Below, piece by piece: positions 4,243 to 64,000 of a stretch of 64,000 bases of DNA. The DNA lies in assembly GCF_003334785.1 (NCBI RefSeq), contig NZ_QOWV01000004.1. One strand, 5' to 3'. Each line of letters begins with the position of its first letter. Position 1 is the first letter of the stretch. The position numbers and the translations under genes are program-made. The notes below the pieces were generated by a model. It saw nothing but the letters and a program-made list of their open reading frames with translations. It ran no database searches and was not told the origin of the DNA. The stretch comes from Escherichia coli. GTDB taxonomy: Bacteria > Pseudomonadota > Gammaproteobacteria > Enterobacterales > Enterobacteriaceae.

Positions 4243-6624
4243 ATGTTAAAAAAAACGTTACTGGCCTACACCATTGGTTTTGCCTTTTCTCCCCCAGCCA
4301 ATGCAGATGGTATAGAGATTGCCGCTGTTGATTTTGATCGGGAAACATTAAAATCACTAGGTGTAGATCCTAATATATCGCATTATTTTTCCCGTTCAGC
4401 CCGTTTTTTGCCAGGTGAATATTCACTGATAGTATCAGTAAATGGCGAAAAAAAAGGCAACATTGCTACGCGCTTTGATGAAAATGGCGACATTTGTCTT
4501 GATCAGGCATTTCTGCAACAAGCCGGTTTAAAAATTCCTTCTGAAGAAAAAAATGGCTGTTACGACTATATATTGTCCTACCCGGGTACCACAATCACAC
4601 CATTACCTAACCAGGAAGCGTTAGATATTATCGTTTCACCACAGGCGATCATTCCCATAGGGTTGGATCTCACAAACGCAGCAACTGGTGGAACAGCTGC
4701 GCTGCTAAACTACTCTCTGATGAGCAGCCGTGCAGAATTTTCTAATGGGAGTTCGGACTACTCCCAGGCTGCACTTGAAGGCGGGATTAATATTAATGAC
4801 TGGATGTTACGCAGCCATCAGTTCCTTACACAAACAAATGGCACATTCAGTAACCAGAACTCGTCAACCTACCTTCAACGTACCTTTACAGATCTTAAAA
4901 CACTCATGCGAGCAGGTGAAGTTAACCTCAATAATAGCGTGTTGGAAGGAGCCAGTATTTACGGTATCGAAATCGCACCGGACAACGCATTGCAAACCAG
5001 CGGCAATGGTGTGCAAGTTACTGGTATAGCCAACACCTCTCAGGCTCGTGTCGAGATTCGTCAACAAGGAGTTTTAATTCATTCCATTCTGGTTCCTGCG
5101 GGCGCATTCACTATCCCTGATGTACCTGTTCGCAATGGTAATAGTGATCTTAATGTCACCGTTGTCGAAACAGACGGTAGTTCGCACAACTATATTGTTC
5201 CCTCCACCCTGTTTAATCAGCATGTAGAAAGCTTCCAGGGTTATCGCTTCGCGATAGGGCGGGTAGACGATGACTATGACGAATCACCTTGGGTAATTAG
5301 TGCATCGAGCGGATGGAATCTGACACGCTGGAGTGCAATGAACGGCGGCGTTATCGTAGCAGAAAATTATCAGGCGGCATCAATCCGGTCGAGTCTGGTT
5401 CCCCTGCCCGATTTAACAGTGAGCAGCCAAATTAGTACATCGCAGGATACGAAAGACTCACTGCAAGGACAGAAATATCGTCTTGACGCGAACTACAATC
5501 TCCCATTTTCACTTGGGCTAACAACCAGCCTCACTCGATCTGATCGCCATTATCGCGAACTGTCTGAAGCGATTGATGATGATTATACCGATCCGACTAA
5601 AAGCACTTATGCGCTTGGTTTAAACTGGTCTAACTCCATTCTGGGTGGTTTCAACATCAGTGGCTATAAAACATATAGTTACGACGGTGACAATGACTCA
5701 AGCAACCTTAATATTAACTGGAACAAAGCGTTCAAACACGCCACGGTTTCCGTCAACTGGCAGCATCAACTTAGTGCTTCAGAAAATAATGAAGACGATG
5801 GTGATCTGTTCTACGTCAACATCAGTATTCCATTTGGCAGATCAAACACCGCCACACTGTATACTCGCCATGACGATCATAAAACCCACTATGGTACTGG
5901 TGTCATGGGAGTCGTCTCAGATGAGATGTCCTACTATGTGAATGCTGAACGAGATCACGACGAACGTGAAACGAGCTTGAACGGCAGTATCAGTTCCAAT
6001 CTCCATTACACCCAAGTCAGCCTTGCCGCAGGAGCAAGCGGCAGTGATAGCCGTACTTACAACGGTACGATGTCAGGTGGTATTGCCGTACATGATCAGG
6101 GAGTGACCTTTTCACCGTGGACTATCAATGACACTTTCGCCATCGCAAAAATGGATAACAATATTGCAGGTGTCAGAATTACATCTCAGGCAGGCCCAGT
6201 ATGGACAGATTTTCGGGGTAATGCCGTCATTCCATCAATCCAGCCGTGGCGAACATCAGGAGTTGAGATCGATACCGCCAGCTTGCCAAAAAATGTCGAT
6301 ATCGGTAACGGCACAAAAATGATCAAACAAGGCCGTGGTGCAGTAGGGAAAGTCGGATTCAGTGCGATAACACAACGCCGTGCATTACTCAATATCACAC
6401 TTTCCGACGGCAAAAAACTGCCCAGAGGCGTTGCGATTGAAGATAGTGAAGGCAACTATCTGACAACATCAGTGGATGACGGTGTTGTATTCCTCAATAA
6501 CATCAAACCGGACATGGTGCTAGATATAAAAGATGAGCAGCAATCATGCCGTATTCACCTTACATTCCCAGAAGATGCACCAAAAGATGTGTTCTATGAG
6601 ACAGCAACAGGAGAGTGCCAATGA
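4243..6624 (+). CDS. yhcD: Outer-membrane fimbrial usher, about 793 aa
   Basis: Large ORF; start trimmed from TTG at 4225 to ATG at 4243 preceded by GGAG; usher-like size and composition. Confidence 0.85.
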   Translation: MLKKTLLAYTIGFAFSPPANADGIEIAAVDFDRETLKSLGVDPNISHYFSRSARFLPGEYSLIVSVNGEKKGNIATRFDENGDICLDQAFLQQAGLKIPSEEKNGCYDYILSYPGTTITPLPNQEALDIIVSPQAIIPIGLDLTNAATGGTAALLNYSLMSSRAEFSNGSSDYSQAALEGGININDWMLRSHQFLTQTNGTFSNQNSSTYLQRTFTDLKTLMRAGEVNLNNSVLEGASIYGIEIAPDNALQTSGNGVQVTGIANTSQARVEIRQQGVLIHSILVPAGAFTIPDVPVRNGNSDLNVTVVETDGSSHNYIVPSTLFNQHVESFQGYRFAIGRVDDDYDESPWVISASSGWNLTRWSAMNGGVIVAENYQAASIRSSLVPLPDLTVSSQISTSQDTKDSLQGQKYRLDANYNLPFSLGLTTSLTRSDRHYRELSEAIDDDYTDPTKSTYALGLNWSNSILGGFNISGYKTYSYDGDNDSSNLNINWNKAFKHATVSVNWQHQLSASENNEDDGDLFYVNISIPFGRSNTATLYTRHDDHKTHYGTGVMGVVSDEMSYYVNAERDHDERETSLNGSISSNLHYTQVSLAAGASGSDSRTYNGTMSGGIAVHDQGVTFSPWTINDTFAIAKMDNNIAGVRITSQAGPVWTDFRGNAVIPSIQPWRTSGVEIDTASLPKNVDIGNGTKMIKQGRGAVGKVGFSAITQRRALLNITLSDGKKLPRGVAIEDSEGNYLTTSVDDGVVFLNNIKPDMVLDIKDEQQSCRIHLTFPEDAPKDVFYETATGECQ

Positions 6625-7166
6625 AACGGATAATAACAGGATGCCTGCTGCTGAACTTCGCCATGGCCGCTCAGGCAGAGTGTAATATCTCCAGTAGCAT
6701 ACAAAATATCGACTATGGCAAACGAAGTGCTGCCATGCGCCAAGTTGACCGGGGTAAAACAACACAATTAGCAGACAGAACAATCACGCTGGTAATGCAA
6801 TGCGATCAGGACGCTCATATTCGTGTTCAGTTGAATACCGCTAATATTTCCAACAACGGATTTGGATTTGGCCCGAATGGTTCATTAAATCTGATCGCCA
6901 GCGATGCATTTTCAGGTAGTAACAATCTCGACCTGGCGTTAGCCAGTGGCAAAAATGACAATCCGGGCAGCACAGGAACAGCATCAATTAGTACTTCCCC
7001 CAATAATTGGCTGGTGTTTATGCAAAATGGTCAAGAAGTGGTAATTGATAGCGGTAAAAGCGTTAGCCTCACACTGACAATGGCTCCAGCTTTTAAGGAT
7101 GAAGGGGAACTAACCGACATGACAGATATTACAGGCAATCTGACGGTCCTGGTGGAGGCAAAATGA
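6621..7166 (+). CDS. yhcE: Fimbrial-like protein (DUF1120 type), uninterrupted here
   Basis: ATG at 6621 overlapping yhcD stop (ATGA); signal peptide MKRIITGCLLLNFAMAAQA; AGGAG SD. Confidence 0.75.
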   Translation: MKRIITGCLLLNFAMAAQAECNISSSIQNIDYGKRSAAMRQVDRGKTTQLADRTITLVMQCDQDAHIRVQLNTANISNNGFGFGPNGSLNLIASDAFSGSNNLDLALASGKNDNPGSTGTASISTSPNNWLVFMQNGQEVVIDSGKSVSLTLTMAPAFKDEGELTDMTDITGNLTVLVEAK

Positions 7167-32280: not shown

Positions 32281-32309
32281 TTAGTTACTGCAGTAGAGGA
32301 TTTTTTACG

Positions 32310-32535
32310 GCTGCCGGATGCGGCGTGAACGCCCTATCCAGCCTACGGTTATGTTCCGGTTTGTAGGCCTGATAAGACGCACAGCGTCGCATCAGGCAAC
32401 GGCTGTCGGATGCGGCGTAAACGCCTTATCCGACCTACGGTTATGTTCCGTTTGTAGGCCTGATAAGACGCACAGCGTCGCATCAGGCAACGGCTGCCGG
32501 ATGCGGCGTGAACGCCCTATCCGACCTACGGTTAT
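32310..32535. repeat. BIME: cluster of about five REP palindromic units
   Basis: Alternating GCCGGATGCGGCGTGAACGCCTTATCCGGCCTAC-type and TGTAGGCCTGATAAGACGC...GCATCAGGCA-type units read directly. Confidence 0.85.
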
Positions 32536-32603
32536 GTTCTGGCTCGTTGGCCTTTGGCAACGATTATCCTATGAGATTGGGGCAATTACGCGCCCTCGTC
32601 AAA

Positions 32604-44604: not shown

Positions 44605-45581
44605 CCATTTAGCAGGGAATAATAAGAGAGGGAACTCATTTTGAAATCATTATTCAATCGGTTAACGGGAAAAGCGGTTAGCCGGACAGCTTTCGTCGAA
44701 CACCTTGGTCAGGAAGTTATACAACATCATCCAAACTGGAAAGTCATGATTTCGACTGACCACAAATTGATGCGCATTGATACTCCACTAAACAGCTATT
44801 ATTGATACGCCTCCGTCGCCTGTTAGGTTTATGGTGCTTTGCCTGGGCGACGCTACGCTTAGCCCCTTACTTATTTCTGGTACCATGGGGTGAATAATCT
44901 GATTTTGTTTGACTACAAATTAATCACTCGAACCTATTTAATGCTGAGCATTGTCAATCGGTTAATTTTGCGTGCTTTAGCATTCACATCTATCCAGACG
45001 ATGCAGTGAAAATTGGGTAATCCCCAGCAACCGCTGCGTAATGTCGTCTATCTTGTCGCGATCCTGGCATCCCTACATTATTTGTGGTCTGTGAAGATTA
45101 TCTCATTGCAGCCCCTCATCTTCGCAGGGCTGGCTTTTCAGCTTTTCACCTTACGTTATAAGAAGTTCCGTCGATGATGGCGCTAATTTCGTGAATTGTG
45201 CGGCTTGTTGCAAATTACACGGTGTTGAAGGTTATTTACATGTTAGCTGTTGATTATCTTCCCTGATAAGACCAGTATTTAGCTGCCAATTGCTACGAAA
45301 TCGTTATAATGTGCGACCTCGTCCTCCCTGACGCAGTTTTTGCGCTGCGGAAAAGGTGACATTGGCGCAACGAAGGTATATTTTGTTTTTTGCCGGAGGA
45401 TAGCAGCAGATCGCTGCACAATGTCCGTCAAGTCTAACATTGACACTCTGGGGCAAAATAGACCGGCGTCCCGGCCTGCTGGAATTTATCGCTATGCATA
45501 CAGCTGTCGGGGCATACGCTTTACAGACGGCGGTGAAACGCCTGTCACAATCACACTAAACAAAGAGTACGGAACCCACTC

Positions 45582-55178: not shown

Positions 55179-58100
55179 ATGGCAAACTTTTTTATTCGAC
55201 GACCGATATTTGCATGGGTGCTGGCCATTATTCTGATGATGGCGGGCGCACTGGCGATCCTACAATTGCCCGTCGCTCAGTATCCAACAATTGCACCGCC
55301 TGCGGTTTCTGTTTCAGCAAACTATCCGGGCGCTGATGCGCAGACCGTGCAGGATACGGTGACGCAGGTTATCGAACAGAATATGAACGGTATCGATAAC
55401 CTGATGTATATGTCCTCCACCAGCGATTCCGCCGGTAGCGTGACAATTACCCTTACCTTCCAGTCCGGGACCGATCCTGATATCGCGCAAGTGCAGGTGC
55501 AGAACAAACTCCAGCTCGCCACGCCGTTGCTGCCGCAGGAGGTTCAGCAGCAGGGGATCAGTGTTGAAAAGTCCAGTAGCAGCTATTTGATGGTGGCGGG
55601 CTTTGTCTCTGATAACCCAGGCACCACACAGGACGATATCTCGGACTATGTGGCCTCTAACGTTAAAGATACGCTTAGCCGTCTGAATGGCGTCGGTGAC
55701 GTACAGCTTTTCGGCGCACAGTATGCGATGCGTATCTGGCTGGATGCCGATCTGCTAAACAAATATAAACTGACACCGGTTGATGTGATTAACCAGTTGA
55801 AGGTACAGAACGATCAGATCGCTGCCGGACAGTTGGGCGGAACGCCAGCGTTACCAGGGCAACAATTGAACGCCTCGATTATTGCTCAGACGCGGTTTAA
55901 AAATCCGGAAGAATTCGGCAAAGTGACCCTGCGCGTAAACAGTGACGGCTCGGTGGTACGCCTGAAAGATGTCGCACGGGTTGAACTTGGCGGTGAAAAC
56001 TATAACGTTATCGCTCGTATCAACGGAAAACCGGCGGCGGGCCTGGGGATTAAGCTGGCAACCGGCGCGAATGCTCTCGATACCGCGAAAGCCATTAAGG
56101 CAAAACTGGCGGAATTACAGCCATTCTTCCCGCAGGGAATGAAGGTTCTCTACCCTTATGACACCACGCCATTCGTCCAGCTTTCTATTCACGAAGTGGT
56201 AAAAACGCTGTTCGAAGCCATTATGCTGGTGTTCCTGGTGATGTATCTGTTCTTGCAGAATATGCGAGCAACGCTGATCCCCACCATTGCGGTACCCGTG
56301 GTGTTGTTAGGGACGTTTGCCATCCTCGCCGCTTTTGGTTACTCCATCAACACACTAACGATGTTCGGGATGGTGCTTGCCATCGGGCTGCTCGTCGATG
56401 ATGCGATAGTGGTGGTGGAGAACGTCGAGCGCGTGATGATGGAGGATAAGCTCCCGCCAAAAGAAGCGACGGAAAAATCGATGTCGCAAATTCAGGGCGC
56501 ACTGGTGGGTATCGCGATGGTGCTGTCAGCGGTATTTATTCCGATGGCATTCTTCGGCGGTTCTACTGGGGCAATTTATCGCCAGTTCTCTATCACCATC
56601 GTTTCGGCAATGGCGCTTTCTGTTCTGGTGGCATTGATTCTTACCCCTGCGTTATGTGCAACGCTGCTTAAACCCGTCTCTGCTGAGCATCACGAAAATA
56701 AGGGCGGTTTCTTCGGTTGGTTTAATACCACCTTCGATCATAGCGTTAACCACTACACCAACAGCGTCGGCAAAATCCTCGGATCCACAGGACGATATTT
56801 ACTGATCTATGCGCTGATTGTTGCAGGAATGGTGGTGTTGTTTTTACGTCTTCCGTCTTCCTTCTTACCTGAAGAGGATCAGGGTGTCTTTCTGACCATG
56901 ATTCAGTTACCCGCTGGCGCGACGCAAGAGCGGACGCAAAAAGTGTTGGATCAAGTTACGGATTACTATCTGAAGAACGAGAAAGCGAACGTTGAAAGTG
57001 TCTTTACGGTTAACGGCTTTAGCTTCAGCGGCCAGGCACAAAACGCCGGTATGGCCTTCGTCAGTCTGAAACCGTGGGAAGAGCGTAATGGTGACGAAAA
57101 CAGTGCGGAAGCGGTAATCCATCGTGCCAAAATGGAATTGGGCAAGATCCGCGACGGTTTTGTCATTCCATTCAATATGCCAGCCATTGTTGAACTGGGC
57201 ACGGCAACGGGTTTCGACTTTGAGTTAATTGATCAGGCTGGGCTGGGTCACGATGCCCTAACCCAGGCCCGTAACCAGTTGCTTGGTATGGCGGCGCAAC
57301 ATCCTGCCAGCTTAGTCAGCGTGCGCCCTAATGGCCTGGAAGACACCGCGCAGTTTAAACTGGAAGTTGACCAGGAAAAGGCGCAGGCATTAGGTGTTTC
57401 ACTTTCTGACATCAATCAGACCATTTCAACGGCGCTGGGTGGGACTTACGTTAACGACTTCATCGACCGTGGTCGCGTGAAAAAGTTGTATGTTCAGGCG
57501 GATGCCAAATTCCGTATGCTGCCAGAAGATGTCGATAAACTTTATGTCCGCAGCGCCAACGGCGAAATGGTGCCATTCTCGGCCTTTACCACTTCACATT
57601 GGGTGTATGGCTCTCCGCGACTGGAACGCTACAACGGTCTGCCGTCAATGGAGATTCAGGGGGAAGCCGCGCCAGGAACCAGTTCCGGCGATGCCATGGC
57701 GTTGATGGAAAACCTTGCGTCAAAATTACCTGCGGGCATTGGTTATGACTGGACGGGTATGTCGTATCAGGAACGCTTATCGGGAAACCAGGCTCCCGCT
57801 CTGGTAGCAATTTCCTTTGTGGTTGTTTTCCTGTGCCTTGCTGCACTCTATGAAAGCTGGTCAATTCCTGTCTCGGTTATGTTGGTAGTGCCGTTAGGGA
57901 TTGTCGGCGTGCTGCTGGCGGCGACACTCTTTAATCAAAAAAATGACGTCTACTTTATGGTGGGCTTGCTAACGACAATTGGCTTGTCGGCCAAAAACGC
58001 TATTTTGATCGTTGAGTTCGCTAAAGATCTCATGGAGAAAGAGGGTAAAGGTGTTGTTGAAGCGACACTGATGGCAGTACGTATGCGTCTGCGTCCTATC

Positions 58101-58283
58101 CTGATGACCTCTCTCGCCTTTATTCTCGGCGTATTACCGCTAGCTATCAGTAACGGTGCCGGCAGTGGCGCGCAGAACGCTGTGGGTATCGGGGTAATGG
58201 GAGGAATGGTCTCTGCAACGTTGCTGGCAATCTTCTTCGTACCGGTGTTCTTTGTGGTGATCCGCCGTTGCTTTAAAGGATAA
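55179..58283 (+). CDS. acrF: RND multidrug efflux transporter AcrF, 1034 aa
   Basis: [36 protein letters not shown]...; 12-TM RND architecture. Confidence 0.95.
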
Positions 58284-58535
58284 ATCAGAAACATAAAGGC
58301 GCTTTCGGGTGCCTTTATTATTTCCAGTGAAACCCATAAAAATTAATAAGATATTCTTCTGCTCACTCTTTAAAAGCTTTCTATAGTTCCCGCTCCCTTC
58401 ACTATTTTTACAATTCACATAATTTGTCATTATTCATTCCGCAAGATTTATAACCTCCGGTGATAAAATGGCATTCAGCTCGTTAATAAGAGAGTTAACT
58501 TATTAAGCGTTAGCGTTTATTACTGAGGTAACACC

Positions 58536-58757
58536 ATGAAAAGATTAATTCCTGTGGCATTGCTCACCGCATTGCTGGCGGGCTGTGCTCACGATTCGCC
58601 CTGCGTTCCGGTTTATGACGATCAGGGTCGTCTGGTTCACACCAATACCTGTATGAAAGGCACGACTCAGGATAACTGGGAAACGGCTGGGGCTATTGCC
58701 GGCGGGGCAGCTGCTGTTGCTGGCCTGACGATGGGGATCATCGCTCTATCGAAATAA
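58536..58757 (+). CDS. yhdV: Small lipoprotein YhdV, 73 aa
   Basis: Lipobox LLAGC; Gly/Ala-rich C-terminal hydrophobic segment. Confidence 0.8.
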   Translation: MKRLIPVALLTALLAGCAHDSPCVPVYDDQGRLVHTNTCMKGTTQDNWETAGAIAGGAAAVAGLTMGIIALSK

Positions 58758-58764
58758 CTGAACA

Positions 58765-58790
58765 GGGCGCGGAGTTCCGCGCTCTTTTTA
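58765..58790 (+). terminator. Intrinsic terminator after yhdV
   Basis: GCGCGGAGTTCCGCGC hairpin followed by TCTTTTT. Confidence 0.6.
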
Positions 58791-59187
58791 ACGATACAGT
58801 ATCTCTCCATAAGATAAAATATTGCTATATTCTGCTGGGTAATTCCCTGCTGATTTAGCATGTTACATCGCGTTATTTCGCTGCTTTCGAAATAACGCAT
58901 CAATTTAATTTTCACACTTCCCACCAGAAATATACTCACGCTAACAATCATTATTCTGCTTAGTAAAACACGCGTAAATATTTTGCGCCAAAATGTGGCG
59001 CATGTTTCATTTTCGCACCATTGCGGGGCGCTGTTTTTATTATTTCCTGTCTACACTCAGCTTATTGCGACGCGAAATCGTGCGCAAAAGCTGGCACTAC
59101 TTTTGCTTATAAGAGGATGGCCACAGACAGGTAAAAGACGTTTCCCAAACGTCCTATAACGATAATTTTCGCCTCACAGGAAGCATT

Positions 59188-60213
59188 ATGAAAAAGATGA
59201 TGATAGCCACACTGGCTGCCGCCAGCGTGCTGCTTGCCGTTGCAAATCAGGCGCATGCTGGCGCGACGCTTGATGCCGTTCAGAAAAAAGGTTTTGTGCA
59301 ATGCGGGATCAGTGATGGATTACCTGGGTTCTCTTATGCCGATGCTGACGGTAAGTTTTCAGGTATTGATGTTGATATTTGTCGTGGTGTTGCCGCTGCT
59401 GTATTTGGTGACGACACGAAAGTGAAATATACCCCGCTCACTGCAAAAGAACGCTTCACCGCTTTACAGTCAGGGGAGGTGGATTTGCTCTCCCGTAATA
59501 CGACCTGGACTTCATCTCGCGATGCCGGGATGGGAATGGCATTTACCGGCGTCACTTATTACGACGGCATTGGCTTCCTGACGCACGATAAAGCGGGGCT
59601 AAAAAGCGCGAAAGAACTGGATGGCGCTACCGTCTGTATTCAGGCGGGTACTGATACCGAACTCAACGTCGCCGACTACTTCAAGGCAAACAATATGAAG
59701 TACACACCGGTGACTTTCGATCGCTCTGACGAATCAGCGAAGGCACTGGAATCTGGTCGCTGCGATACGCTGGCCTCGGATCAATCACAACTGTATGCCC
59801 TGCGCATCAAATTAAGCAACCCAGCTGAATGGATTGTCTTACCGGAAGTTATCTCAAAAGAACCGCTTGGTCCGGTAGTTCGTCGTGGCGATGATGAATG
59901 GTTCTCGATTGTACGCTGGACGCTTTTCGCCATGCTGAATGCTGAAGAGATGGGCATCAATTCCCAGAACGTCGATGAAAAAGCGGCTAATCCAGCAACG
60001 CCTGATATGGCACATCTGCTGGGTAAAGAAGGCGATTACGGCAAGGATCTGAAGCTGGATAATAAATGGGCCTATAACATCATCAAACAGGTGGGTAACT
60101 ACTCGGAAATTTTTGAGCGTAACGTAGGTTCAGAAAGCCCGCTGAAAATTAAACGTGGGCAAAATAATCTCTGGAATAACGGCGGTATTCAGTACGCACC
60201 GCCCGTGCGTTAA
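59188..60213 (+). CDS. yhdW: Periplasmic substrate-binding protein of polar amino acid ABC transporter, 341 aa, reading frame intact
   Basis: Signal peptide MKKMMIATLAAASVLLAVANQAHA; SBP family 3-like; uninterrupted ORF. Confidence 0.85.
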   Translation: MKKMMIATLAAASVLLAVANQAHAGATLDAVQKKGFVQCGISDGLPGFSYADADGKFSGIDVDICRGVAAAVFGDDTKVKYTPLTAKERFTALQSGEVDLLSRNTTWTSSRDAGMGMAFTGVTYYDGIGFLTHDKAGLKSAKELDGATVCIQAGTDTELNVADYFKANNMKYTPVTFDRSDESAKALESGRCDTLASDQSQLYALRIKLSNPAEWIVLPEVISKEPLGPVVRRGDDEWFSIVRWTLFAMLNAEEMGINSQNVDEKAANPATPDMAHLLGKEGDYGKDLKLDNKWAYNIIKQVGNYSEIFERNVGSESPLKIKRGQNNLWNNGGIQYAPPVR

Positions 60214-60280
60214 GTCGGTGTGAGGTAACGAGCGTCGCTACGGCGGCGCTCTCTTCAGCGTTATGCTTTCCGAGGTTTCT

Positions 60281-61462
60281 ATGTCTCATCGCCGCTCAAC
60301 CGTTAAAGGCTCACTCTCTTTTGCCAACCCTACGGTTCGCGCCTGGTTATTCCAGATCCTTGCCGTTGTTGCTGTTGTCGGCATTGTTGGTTGGTTATTT
60401 CACAACACTGTAACGAATCTCAATAATCGTGGCATTACTTCAGGTTTTGCCTTTCTGGATCGCGGCGCTGGCTTCGGTATTGTCCAGCATTTGATCGATT
60501 ACCAGCAGGGCGACACCTACGGACGCGTTTTTATTGTCGGCTTACTCAATACGCTACTGGTTTCTGCATTGTGTATTGTGTTCGCTTCTGTTTTGGGCTT
60601 CTTTATCGGTCTGGCGAGACTTTCGGATAACTGGCTGCTACGAAAGCTTTCCACAATTTATATTGAGATCTTCCGTAATATTCCCCCGCTGCTGCAAATC
60701 TTCTTCTGGTACTTTGCCGTGTTGCGCAATTTGCCCGGACCACGCCAGGCTGTGAGCGCGTTTGATCTGGCCTTTTTGAGCAATCGTGGGCTTTATATTC
60801 CGTCACCGCAGCTGGGAGACGGATTTATTGCGTTTATCCTGGCTGTTGTTATGGCTATAGTCCTTTCTGTTGGGCTATTCCGCTTTAATAAAACATACCA
60901 GATAAAGACCGGACAACTGCGCCGCACCTGGCCGATCGCCGCAGTGTTGATCATTGGTTTGCCTTTACTGGCGCAATGGCTTTTTGGCGCAGCACTACAC
61001 TGGGATGTCCCAGCCCTACGAGGCTTTAACTTCCGCGGCGGGATGGTTTTAATTCCTGAACTGGCAGCCTTAACGCTGGCACTTTCGGTTTATACATCTG
61101 CATTTATCGCCGAGATTATCCGCGCTGGGATCCAGGCAGTGCCTTATGGTCAACATGAAGCGGCTCGGTCACTGGGATTACCCAACCCGGTTACGCTACG
61201 CCAGGTCATTATTCCCCAGGCATTGCGGGTGATTATTCCACCGTTAACCAGCCAGTATCTCAACATCGTCAAAAACTCCTCTCTTGCCGCCGCTATTGGC
61301 TATCCCGATATGGTTTCGCTGTTTGCCGGCACCGTGCTGAATCAGACGGGGCAAGCCATCGAGACGATAGCCATGACCATGTCGGTCTATCTGATTATCA
61401 GCCTGACTATCTCGCTGCTGATGAATATCTATAACCGCCGCATCGCGATCGTTGAACGCTAA
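60281..61462 (+). CDS. yhdX: ABC transporter permease, 393 aa
   Basis: Start trimmed to MSHRRSTVKG with GAGG SD; polytopic permease. Confidence 0.85.
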   Translation: MSHRRSTVKGSLSFANPTVRAWLFQILAVVAVVGIVGWLFHNTVTNLNNRGITSGFAFLDRGAGFGIVQHLIDYQQGDTYGRVFIVGLLNTLLVSALCIVFASVLGFFIGLARLSDNWLLRKLSTIYIEIFRNIPPLLQIFFWYFAVLRNLPGPRQAVSAFDLAFLSNRGLYIPSPQLGDGFIAFILAVVMAIVLSVGLFRFNKTYQIKTGQLRRTWPIAAVLIIGLPLLAQWLFGAALHWDVPALRGFNFRGGMVLIPELAALTLALSVYTSAFIAEIIRAGIQAVPYGQHEAARSLGLPNPVTLRQVIIPQALRVIIPPLTSQYLNIVKNSSLAAAIGYPDMVSLFAGTVLNQTGQAIETIAMTMSVYLIISLTISLLMNIYNRRIAIVER

Positions 61463-61471
61463 GGAGTCATG

Positions 61472-62575
61472 ATGACAAAAGTATTGCTGTCTCATCCCCC
61501 GCGCCCGGCGAGCCATAACTCAAGCCGCGCGATGGTGTGGGTGCGAAAAAATCTGTTCTCCAGCTGGAGCAATAGCCTGCTGACTATTGGCTGCATATGG
61601 TTGATGTGGGAACTGATCCCACCGTTGCTGAACTGGGCATTTTTGCAGGCTAACTGGGTTGGCTCAACGCGTGCCGACTGCACAAAAGCCGGTGCCTGTT
61701 GGGTCTTCATCCACGAACGATTTGGTCAGTTTATGTATGGGCTTTACCCACACGACCAACGCTGGCGAATTAACCTCGCATTACTGATTGGGCTTGTGTC
61801 GATCGCACCAATGTTCTGGAAAATACTCCCGCATCGCGGTCGCTATATTGCGGCCTGGGCGGTGATTTACCCACTGATTGTCTGGTGGCTGATGTATGGC
61901 GGTTTTTTTGCTCTTGAGCGGGTTGAAACCCGGCAATGGGGCGGGCTGACGCTAACTTTAATTATTGCATCAGTTGGGATTGCGGGGGCGCTACCGTGGG
62001 GGATCTTACTGGCGTTAGGTCGCCGCTCCCATATGCCGATTGTGCGTATCTTATCGGTCATTTTTATCGAATTCTGGCGCGGCGTGCCGCTGATTACCGT
62101 TCTGTTTATGTCTTCGGTCATGCTGCCGTTGTTTATGGCAGAAGGCACCAGTATCGACAAATTGATCCGCGCGCTGGTTGGCGTGATCCTGTTTCAGTCA
62201 GCATATGTTGCGGAAGTCGTGCGAGGTGGATTACAGGCGCTGCCTAAAGGGCAATATGAAGCGGCAGAGTCGCTGGCGTTGGGTTACTGGAAAACTCAGG
62301 GGCTGGTTATTCTGCCACAGGCGTTGAAGCTGGTAATTCCTGGGCTGGTAAATACCATCATCGCACTCTTCAAAGATACCAGCCTGGTGATCATTATCGG
62401 GTTGTTCGATCTTTTCAGTAGCGTTCAGCAGGCAACCGTTGATCCCGCCTGGTTGGGTATGTCGACGGAAGGGTATGTTTTCGCCGCGCTGATCTACTGG
62501 ATCTTCTGTTTCAGCATGTCGCGCTATAGCCAGTATCTGGAAAAACGTTTTAACACCGGGCGTACACCGCATTGA
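61472..62575 (+). CDS. yhdY: ABC transporter permease, 367 aa
   Basis: Start at second ATG, 5 nt after AAGGAG; polytopic permease. Confidence 0.85.
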
Positions 62576-62582
62576 GGACACT

Positions 62583-63341
62583 ATGAGCCAAATTTTACTG
62601 CAACCTGCTAACGCGATGATTACGCTGGAAAACGTCAATAAATGGTATGGACAATTCCATGTTTTGAAAAATATAAATTTAACCGTGCAACCGGGAGAAC
62701 GGATCGTTCTGTGTGGCCCTTCAGGTTCCGGTAAATCGACAACCATTCGTTGTATTAATCATCTGGAAGAACATCAACAGGGACGGATCGTGGTAGATGG
62801 CATCGAACTTAATGAAGATATCCGCAATATTGAGCGCGTCAGGCAGGAAGTGGGAATGGTCTTTCAGCATTTCAATCTCTTCCCTCATCTGACCGTTTTA
62901 CAGAACTGTACCCTGGCACCGATTTGGGTACGCAAGATGCCTAAGAAAGAGGCTGAAGATCTGGCGGTGCATTACCTAGAGCGGGTGAGAATTGCCGAAC
63001 ATGCGCATAAGTTTCCCGGACAGATTTCAGGTGGTCAGCAGCAACGCGTTGCCATTGCGCGTTCGCTGTGTATGAAGCCGAAAATTATGTTGTTTGATGA
63101 GCCAACGTCGGCGCTCGATCCTGAGATGGTGAAAGAGGTGCTGGATACGATGATTGGGCTGGCGCAGTCGGGTATGACAATGTTGTGTGTAACACATGAG
63201 ATGGGGTTTGCACGAACCGTCGCTGACCGGGTAATTTTTATGGATCGTGGGGAAATAGTGGAGCAAGCTGCACCTGATGAATTTTTTGCGCATCCTAAAT
63301 CAGAGCGTACGAGGGCATTTTTATCGCAGGTAATCCATTAA
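62583..63341 (+). CDS. yhdZ: ABC transporter ATP-binding protein, 252 aa
   Basis: Walker [10 protein letters not shown], signature LSGGQQQR, Walker [11 protein letters not shown]. Confidence 0.9.
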
Positions 63342-63360
63342 TTGAATGTTAGTTCGAAAA

Positions 63361-63394
63361 GCAAAAAGGCCATCCTTTCGGATGGCCTTTCGCT
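63361..63394. terminator. rrn T2-like hairpin (AAAGGCCATCC-tttcg-GGATGGCCTTT), convergent terminator for rrnD and yhdZ
   Basis: Perfect 11-bp-arm hairpin with T-rich flank on both strands. Confidence 0.6.
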
Positions 63395-63523
63395 TGATTT
63401 GATGTCTGGCAGTTTATGGCGGGCGTCCTGCCCGCCACCCTCCGGGCCGTTGCTTCGCAACGTTCAAATCCGCTCCCGGCGGATTTGTCCTACTCAGGAG
63501 AGCGTTCACCGACAAACAACAGA

Positions 63524-63569
63524 TAAAACGAAAGGCCCAGTCTTTCGACTGAGCCTTTCGTTTTATTTG
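63524..63569 (-). terminator. rrn T1-like terminator immediately downstream of rrfF
   Basis: Minus-strand AAACGAAAGGCTCAGTCGAAAGACTGGGCCTTTCGTTTTAT, matching the well-known rrnB T1 sequence from memory. Confidence 0.7.
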
Positions 63570-63689
63570 ATGCCTGGCAGTTCCCTACTCTCGCATGGGG
63601 AGACCCCACACTACCATCGGCGCTACGGCGTTTCACTTCTGAGTTCGGCATGGGGTCAGGTGGGACCACCGCGCTACTGCCGCCAGACA
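63570..63689 (-). rRNA. rrfF: 5S ribosomal RNA (distal copy of rrnD), 120 nt
   Basis: Minus-strand match to E. coli 5S; carries U at position 3 (UGUCUGG) and GGCAGUAGCGC variant relative to rrfD. Confidence 0.9.
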
Positions 63690-63726
63690 AATTCTTTTCT
63701 AATCTGCCGAACTTTAACCTAAAAAG

Positions 63727-63802
63727 TGGTGCTGATACCCAGAGTCGAACTGGGGACCTCACCCTTACCAAGGGTGCGCTCTACCAACTGAGCCATATCA
63801 GC
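63727..63802 (-). tRNA. thrV: tRNA-Thr (anticodon GGU), 76 nt with encoded CCA
   Basis: Minus-strand GCTGATATGGCTCAGTTGGTAGAGCGCACCCTTGGTAAGGGTGAGGTCCCCAGTTCGACTCTGGGTATCAGCACCA. Confidence 0.9.
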
Positions 63803-63814
63803 ACGCTAAATTTG

Positions 63815-63934
63815 ATGCCTGGCAGTTCCCTACTCTCGCATGGGGAGACCCCACACTACCATCGGCGCTACGGCGTTTCACTTCTGAGTTCGGCATGGGG
63901 TCAGGTGGGACCACCGCGCTACGGCCGCCAGGCA
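63815..63934 (-). rRNA. rrfD: 5S ribosomal RNA (proximal copy of rrnD), 120 nt
   Basis: Minus-strand exact-looking match to canonical E. coli 5S (UGCCUGGCGGCCGUAGCGCGGUGG...). Confidence 0.9.
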
Positions 63935-64000
63935 AATTCTGTTTTATCAGACCGCTTCTGCGTTCTGATTTAATCTGTATCAGGCTGAAAATCTTCTCTC
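63935..64000 (-). other. 23S-5S spacer of rrnD (window ends before the 23S gene)
   Basis: Minus-strand GAGAGAAGATTTTCAGCCTGATACAGATTAAATCAGAACGCAGAAGCGGTCTGATAAAACAGAATT is the conserved spacer preceding 5S. Confidence 0.6.

Follow-up and report, generated by a model that had tools for sequence, protein, structure and literature searches.

The yhdWXYZ operon of Escherichia coli, located at positions 59188-63341 of the 64-kb stretch of DNA analyzed here (contig NZ_QOWV01000004.1; hereafter, the window), very probably encodes an intact, wild-type polar-amino-acid importer under nitrogen regulatory (Ntr) control. Judged from its sequence, the region represents the ancestral, functional allele, that is, the ordinary undamaged wild-type form of E. 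coli, and differs from the K-12 allele, in which the gene of the substrate-binding protein (SBP), yhdW, is frameshifted. The strain difference and its exact nucleotide are already known from a published report; the finding is correct but not new.

The six-frame list of open reading frames (ORFs) shows four plus-strand ORFs at this locus, each uninterrupted and lying close together, in the order yhdW, yhdX, yhdY, and yhdZ (SBP, permease, permease, ATPase). The yhdW gene (59188-60213, plus strand) encodes a periplasmic SBP of 341 amino acids (aa). The yhdX gene (60281-61462, plus strand) encodes permease 1, which has 393 aa by the RefSeq start (WP_000019655.1, the same as in K-12); an in-frame ATG at 60263 upstream of that start gives an alternative of 399 aa. 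Permease 2 is encoded by yhdY (61472, or 61469, to 62575, plus strand; 367 to 368 aa), and the ATPase of 252 aa is encoded by yhdZ (62583-63341, plus strand). The gaps between W and X, X and Y, and Y and Z are 67, 9, and 7 nt, respectively. Strain EC-129 is 100% identical to the window, and RefSeq annotates the same four genes there, all intact, with yhdW as WP_000738568.1; the RefSeq names at the locus are amino-acid ABC transporter substrate-binding protein, yhdX, yhdY, and yhdZ. The YhdW N terminus (MKKMMIATLAAASVLLAVANQAHA/GATLD) shows the n-, h-, and c-regions of a signal peptide, with an AxA site for cleavage at AHA/G (the slash marks the cleavage point). The first-pass annotation had described four intact, tightly spaced genes and a clean 341-aa yhdW ORF with a signal peptide, and both descriptions agree with the ORF list, the AxA site, and the RefSeq annotation of EC-129. 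A megablast search with 58900-63500 found the locus in all 5,426 complete E. coli genomes, with coverage of at least 80% in 5,413 of them.

The operon of E. coli K-12 MG1655 (b3268 to b3271) occupies the same locus, with acrEF and yhdV as the same neighbors upstream and the end of the rrnD operon downstream, and the DNA of yhdX, yhdY, yhdZ, the promoter region, and the terminator is identical to that of the window. In a global alignment of window positions 56000-64000 with MG1655 (NC_000913.3), eight differences were found, of which only one is inside yhdWXYZ: an extra A in the window at 59255. This A, at nt 68 of yhdW, is the second base of codon His23 and lies at the signal peptidase site (...NQAHA/GATL...). 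When it is lacking, as in K-12, the reading frame is lost and the out-of-frame product stops after 78 aa; in the window the A is present and the 341-aa ORF is open. MG1655 yhdW (b3268) is annotated as a pseudogene of 1025 bp, and another K-12 record labels it "frameshifted." The statement in the first-pass annotation that yhdW is disrupted in K-12 was therefore right, and the alignment indicates that the strain difference is real and consists of a single 1-bp indel. The deletion of nt 68 and the 78-aa product in K-12 were also reported in a preprint by Borde et al. (2026; 10.64898/2026.05.04.722672). A rescue ORF in K-12 was considered and rejected; the mature frame is open only from a GTG 108 nt 3' of the ATG, giving 305 aa, and since this ORF lacks the signal peptide and about 36 N-terminal residues, its product cannot be a periplasmic SBP. 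The loss of one A within the signal peptide region leaves K-12 with YhdXYZ but no binding protein.

An intact operon of four genes is normal for E. coli and for the usable loci of the Enterobacteriaceae. A scan across 100,044 species, each represented by one genome, gave 482 relatives, and the conservation figures come from the best 80, which are 90 to 99% identical; gene integrity was counted in the 78 of these loci with enough DNA, the promoter was counted in 79 loci, and 80 regions were used for the upstream alignment. The genera among the best 80 include Escherichia, Citrobacter, Enterobacter, Kosakonia, Phytobacter, Trabulsiella, Lelliottia, Leclercia, Cedecea, Siccibacter, Atlantibacter, Yokenella, Pluralibacter, Buttiauxella, and others. 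All four genes are full length and in one piece in 78 of the 78 usable loci. The median identities are 93.5% for W, 85.6% for X, 89.6% for Y, and 93.7% for Z, so that YhdW is conserved on a par with the ATPase and above either permease. This equal constraint on YhdW and the ATPase speaks for the SBP-dependent function as the one on which selection acts.

A sigma-54 (RpoN) -24/-12 promoter, yhdWp, is located at 59092-59107 on the plus strand (TGGCAC-TACTT-TTGCT), 81 nt upstream of the yhdW ATG, and is the sole exact match to TGGCACN5TTGCW in the window. The motif TGGCA[CT]-N5-TTGCT was present 91 to 115 nt before the ATG in all 79 orthologous loci, with varying spacer bases. The promoter has been described as a perfect -12/-24 match (PMC7045595). 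A genomic SELEX (systematic evolution of ligands by exponential enrichment; gSELEX) peak of RpoN holoenzyme lies between yhdV and yhdX (PMC8743547), and a K-12 NtrC peak from chromatin immunoprecipitation sequencing (ChIP-seq) was assigned to yhdWXYZ, beside earlier expression data (PMC4066584). After conversion of the older coordinates (offset, ~1,977 bp), both peaks fall within ~100 bp upstream of the ATG. According to the published NtrC ChIP-seq data, the operon belongs to the nitrogen-scavenging regulon, and control of the operon by ZraSR was reported by the preprint authors (10.64898/2026.05.04.722672).

Two elements upstream of the promoter, both on the plus strand, are candidate sites for a sigma-54 enhancer-binding protein, which may be NtrC and possibly ZraR. 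The first is a palindrome, TGCGCCAAAATGTGGCGCA, at 58984-59002, ~125 nt upstream of the inferred transcription start, and the second is an NtrC-like element, CGCACCATTGCGGGGCG, at ~59013-59030, ~96 nt upstream of that start. In the alignment of the 80 orthologous upstream regions, the half-sites of both elements are conserved and the spacers are variable. The spacer of the palindrome is 2 bp longer than in the NtrC consensus, and only the element at 59013-59030 has the canonical NtrC spacing. The same alignment showed a conserved block, CTACACTCA, at 59049-59058, between the putative activator sites and the sigma-54 promoter, which is possibly a site for integration host factor (IHF), and another conserved block, GGCCACAGACAGG, at 59117-59131, at the inferred start of the leader.

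The first-pass annotation had also called the system a polar-amino-acid ATP-binding cassette (ABC) transporter, and this call was supported by the family matches of all four subunits. YhdW matched Pfam SBP_bac_3 (E = 1.3e-15). Its closest solved relative is PDB 4Z9N, a periplasmic amino-acid-binding protein of Brucella ovis, with 58% identity over 319 aligned residues, end to end (E = 5e-122); the second-best PDB match (E = 2e-20) was 100 orders of magnitude weaker. The alignment with 4Z9N begins at residue 22, where it overlaps the His tag of the crystallized construct. The TIGR01726 permease domain was found in both YhdX (60.4 bits) and YhdY (69.6 bits), against a cutoff of 42.2 bits, and the translations of both contain an EAA loop, which in YhdX reads HEAARSLGLPNPVTLRQVIIPQAL. 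YhdZ carries Walker A, Walker B, the signature ISGGQQQR, and the H-loop VTHEM. The system thus combines a family 3 SBP with a signal peptide, two permeases of the His/Glu/Gln/Arg/opine type with EAA loops, and an ABC ATPase of the HisP/GlnQ class, as in type I importers of the polar amino acid transporter family (PAAT; TC 3.A.1.3).

The best NCBIfam match of YhdZ was GlnQ, at 319 bits against a cutoff of 379, followed by EhuA, TcyN, ArtP, and HisP; YhdZ is therefore a relative of GlnQ and not GlnQ itself. The E. coli systems GltIJKL and GlnHPQ share with Yhd the SBP_bac_3 domain, the His/Glu/Gln/Arg/opine permease family, and a GlnQ-like ATPase, but YhdW is far below the cutoffs of their SBP models as well (GltI, 80 bits versus 375; GlnH, 36 bits versus 303), and the Yhd permeases are ~150 to 170 aa longer. 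YhdX is longer than the typical permeases of ~220 aa in this family. Permease models of 212 to 238 residues (GlnP, GltK, HisM, ArtQ, and related models) cover only split segments of YhdX, and models of the same size align only to residues 157-362 of YhdY, leaving an N-terminal extension of ~155 aa ahead of the core. Since the family models cover only parts of YhdX and YhdY, both are enlarged permeases.

The best-supported reading of these features is that the products of yhdWXYZ form a type I ABC importer for polar amino acids, dependent on its binding protein and of the same kind as AapJQMP/BztABCD. The long SBP (~340 aa) with its identity to 4Z9N, the enlarged permeases (YhdX, 393 aa; YhdY, 367 aa), and the order SBP-permease-permease-ATPase all point to this subfamily. 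The permeases of Aap and Bzt likewise have ~370 to 400 aa. The SBP, two-permease, and ATPase layout is shared with the B. ovis system of 4Z9N and with BztABCD of Rhodobacter capsulatus, and the preprint, which names 4Z9N BztA, also placed Yhd in the AapJQMP/BztABCD subfamily (10.64898/2026.05.04.722672). AapJQMP of Rhizobium leguminosarum has the same subfamily architecture and, according to the preprint, is induced by nitrogen limitation (10.64898/2026.05.04.722672).

In the proposed mechanism, YhdW would be exported by the Sec pathway, cleaved after AHA, and in the periplasm would capture an amino acid. Asparagine is the most probable ligand, and further amino acids of the amide or acidic type may be bound as well. 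Loaded YhdW would dock on the YhdX/YhdY heterodimer, whose EAA loops would couple it to the YhdZ ATPase dimer, and ATP hydrolysis by this dimer would power uptake. Transcription from the sigma-54 promoter would require an enhancer-binding activator, namely NtrC under nitrogen limitation, with ZraR also reported. The operon would serve nitrogen scavenging and host colonization. For the E. coli proteins, both the substrate and the direction of transport are what we infer, and asparagine has about an even chance of being the main physiological substrate.

The evidence for asparagine comes from Citrobacter rodentium, which has a complete orthologous four-gene system whose X, Y, and Z are 85, 89, and 92% identical to those of E. 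coli (10.64898/2026.05.04.722672). YhdW of C. rodentium bound asparagine with a Kd of 0.37 uM and responded strongly to asparagine alone among 20 amino acids; valine was not bound, and cysteine showed weak, nonspecific binding (10.64898/2026.05.04.722672). Deletion of the C. rodentium operon lowered early gut colonization (10.64898/2026.05.04.722672). Asparagine binding and the colonization defect were measured in C. rodentium, not in E. coli. In uropathogenic E. coli (UPEC), a Yhd deletion mutant had a significant defect in urine and a log2 fold change of -2.69 in kidneys (PMC11032443). The statement in the first-pass annotation that the substrate is not firmly established still holds for E. 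coli but needs an update in view of the asparagine binding by the C. rodentium orthologue.

Several points weigh against asparagine import by the E. coli system. Deletion of the C. rodentium operon caused no growth defect on asparagine, even in asparagine auxotrophs (10.64898/2026.05.04.722672); no import phenotype was found in vitro. The literature search yielded no transport or binding measurement for E. coli YhdW or YhdWXYZ. The best 80 of the 482 relatives do not include C. rodentium YhdW; the YhdW proteins of other Citrobacter species are 94 to 97% identical to that of the window. According to the preprint, the related Rhizobium Aap is reported to mediate efflux besides uptake (10.64898/2026.05.04.722672). 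No NCBIfam equivalog model reached its cutoff for any subunit. Curated equivalog assignment of the substrate was rejected on this ground, since specificity cannot be read from the curated models; Yhd falls within the family of polar-amino-acid importers without being any of the E. coli systems that have a name.

The strongest alternative is that the intact system is a broad general L-amino-acid permease like AapJQMP of Rhizobium, active in uptake and possibly release and not selective for asparagine. The Aap/Bzt-like architecture, with the long SBP and enlarged permeases, is in keeping with this alternative. Shea et al. treat Yhd as a nonspecific amino acid importer (PMC11032443), and, according to the preprint, KEGG and other annotation put YhdZ in the general L-amino-acid transporter group and R. 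capsulatus Bzt is reported to handle glutamate, glutamine, aspartate, and asparagine (10.64898/2026.05.04.722672). The 4Z9N and Bzt systems are alphaproteobacterial, however, and the one enteric SBP for which binding was measured directly bound only asparagine. Broad specificity and bidirectional flux are properties of Aap and would be conjectural for Yhd. A broad permease seems rather unlikely, with perhaps one chance in a few.

The K-12 data raise a further idea, which has a smaller chance of being correct: the frameshift may be a switch and not a neutral lesion, with the Ntr-/ZraR-controlled YhdXYZ core acting on other substrates when YhdW is missing. In K-12, which lacks YhdW, deletion raised susceptibility to mecillinam and lomefloxacin (10.64898/2026.05.04.722672). 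A switch would explain the fluoroquinolone and mecillinam homeostasis phenotypes of K-12, and restoration of the A at nt 68 would then make K-12 an importer of asparagine or polar amino acids again, with the drug phenotype gone. The window allele, ~99.95% identical to K-12 over 64 kb, is a natural isogenic-like counterpart for such a comparison.

It is more doubtful still that YhdXYZ acts mainly in antibiotic or xenobiotic homeostasis, by efflux or exclusion, with the binding protein dispensable or modulatory even in the wild type. Both promoters were reported to be inducible by lomefloxacin, but deletion in C. rodentium, where all four genes of the system are present, left antibiotic susceptibility unchanged (10.64898/2026.05.04.722672). 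A dispensable YhdW is also difficult to reconcile with its ATPase-like conservation among the best 80 species, in which it was never disrupted. In the established classification of ABC transporters, type I importers with EAA loops are not known to export drugs, and this architecture argues against such a role.

The finding serves chiefly as a caution, since K-12 is an unusual strain with respect to this locus. Altered antibiotic susceptibility and other phenotypes of K-12 knockouts in yhdX, yhdY, or yhdZ thus describe an SBP-less remnant, which differs from the system in almost all E. coli strains and most Enterobacteriaceae. The intact operon is strongly conserved, nitrogen controlled, and implicated in kidney and gut colonization. 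The true substrate in E. coli has already been framed and partly answered by others, and nothing structurally or mechanistically new is found here.

The deletion allele is very likely restricted to the K-12 lineage. A 74-nt probe for it matched exactly in 355 of 5,383 complete E. coli records, and the 60 carriers listed of these 355 are all K-12 laboratory derivatives (including MG1655 lines, C600, J53, DH1, DH5alpha, NCM3722, and RR1). The 75-nt probe for the intact allele matched exactly in 3,610 records, and most of the others differ by a single-nucleotide polymorphism (SNP). Although single-base indels are the commonest assembly error, an error in the K-12 reference or in the window assembly has almost no chance of being the source of the extra A, because both alleles recur exactly in these numbers of records, the deletion in independently assembled ones that are all of K-12 descent where inspected, the indel site GCGCATGCTGG is without a homopolymer run, and the deletion was independently reported in the preprint (10.64898/2026.05.04.722672). 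As the site is not a homopolymer, it is also not a slippage-prone phase switch. Strain BH212 (NZ_CP029239.1; host, Homo sapiens) was considered as a natural non-K-12 carrier of the deletion and rejected; it has the MG1655 allele at all six locatable informative sites and is probably a K-12 derivative.

Insertion sequences (IS) were observed at the locus in other E. coli strains. In O157:H7 strain EC4115 (NC_011353.1, 4259211-4260424), IS1203 (IS3 family) lies between yhdY and yhdZ, so that yhdZ is cut off from the operon promoter in this O157:H7 lineage; yhdY is annotated there as 15 bp shorter (1089 versus 1104 bp). The IS is also present in strain 2313 (H21), where the permease annotation is split.

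Downstream of the operon, a GC-rich hairpin, AAAGGCCATCC-TTTC-GGATGGCCTTT, is located at 63365-63390, 24 nt past the yhdZ stop, and was found on both strands in the terminator scan. It folds with -25.6 kcal/mol (z = -5.2), and none of 200 shuffled sequences folded as well. It is likely a bidirectional terminator between yhdZ and the convergent end of the rrnD operon, whose 5S rRNA lies at 63572-63687 on the minus strand. Rfam confirmed two 5S rRNAs and a tRNA downstream, and at gathering thresholds these were the only matches in the search for leader RNA elements. The hairpin between yhdW and yhdX (60230-60251) was rejected as an attenuator, since its fold was no better than those of shuffled sequences (z = -1.44). 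The scan for sigma-70 promoters was uninformative, with 4 found versus 5.9 expected. Most draft contigs of the 80 orthologous loci end ~300 to 500 nt past yhdZ, which fits a conserved rRNA operon directly downstream of yhdZ in many genera.

The window is collinear with MG1655 from ~3,358,565 to 3,423,854, with an identity of ~99.95 to 99.98%. The differences found are fifteen SNPs, the absence of an IS5 in yhcE, one fewer unit of bacterial interspersed mosaic elements/repetitive extragenic palindromes (BIME/REP), and the A in yhdW. Many natural isolates, obtained from pigs, poultry, humans, and wildlife, share the last 25 kb at ~100% identity, indicating that the window is the common wild haplotype and that K-12 is set apart from it by a few lesions of its own. 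The IS5 that splits yhcE in MG1655 (IS5R, 3365556-3366750) is absent at window position ~6988, where one TTAG target is present at the junction and the 183-aa ORF of yhcE (6615-7166) runs without interruption; the IS5 insertion is thus the second lesion private to K-12 that the window does not carry. The BIME/REP array between tldD and yhdP (window, ~32300-32540) has one ~91-bp unit fewer than that of MG1655. A G/T SNP at 44834 lies inside yrdE (yrdF/yrdE pseudogenes, ~44641-45177), but restoration of a yrdE/yrdF gene by this SNP was rejected, since only short ORFs (54 aa) are present, which makes the locus a pseudogene remnant in the window as well. Within 78 bp (63496-63573), in the distal terminator region of rrnD and the outer 5S rRNA gene at its 3' end, six of the fifteen SNPs are clustered, and this density could result from gene conversion between rrn operons.

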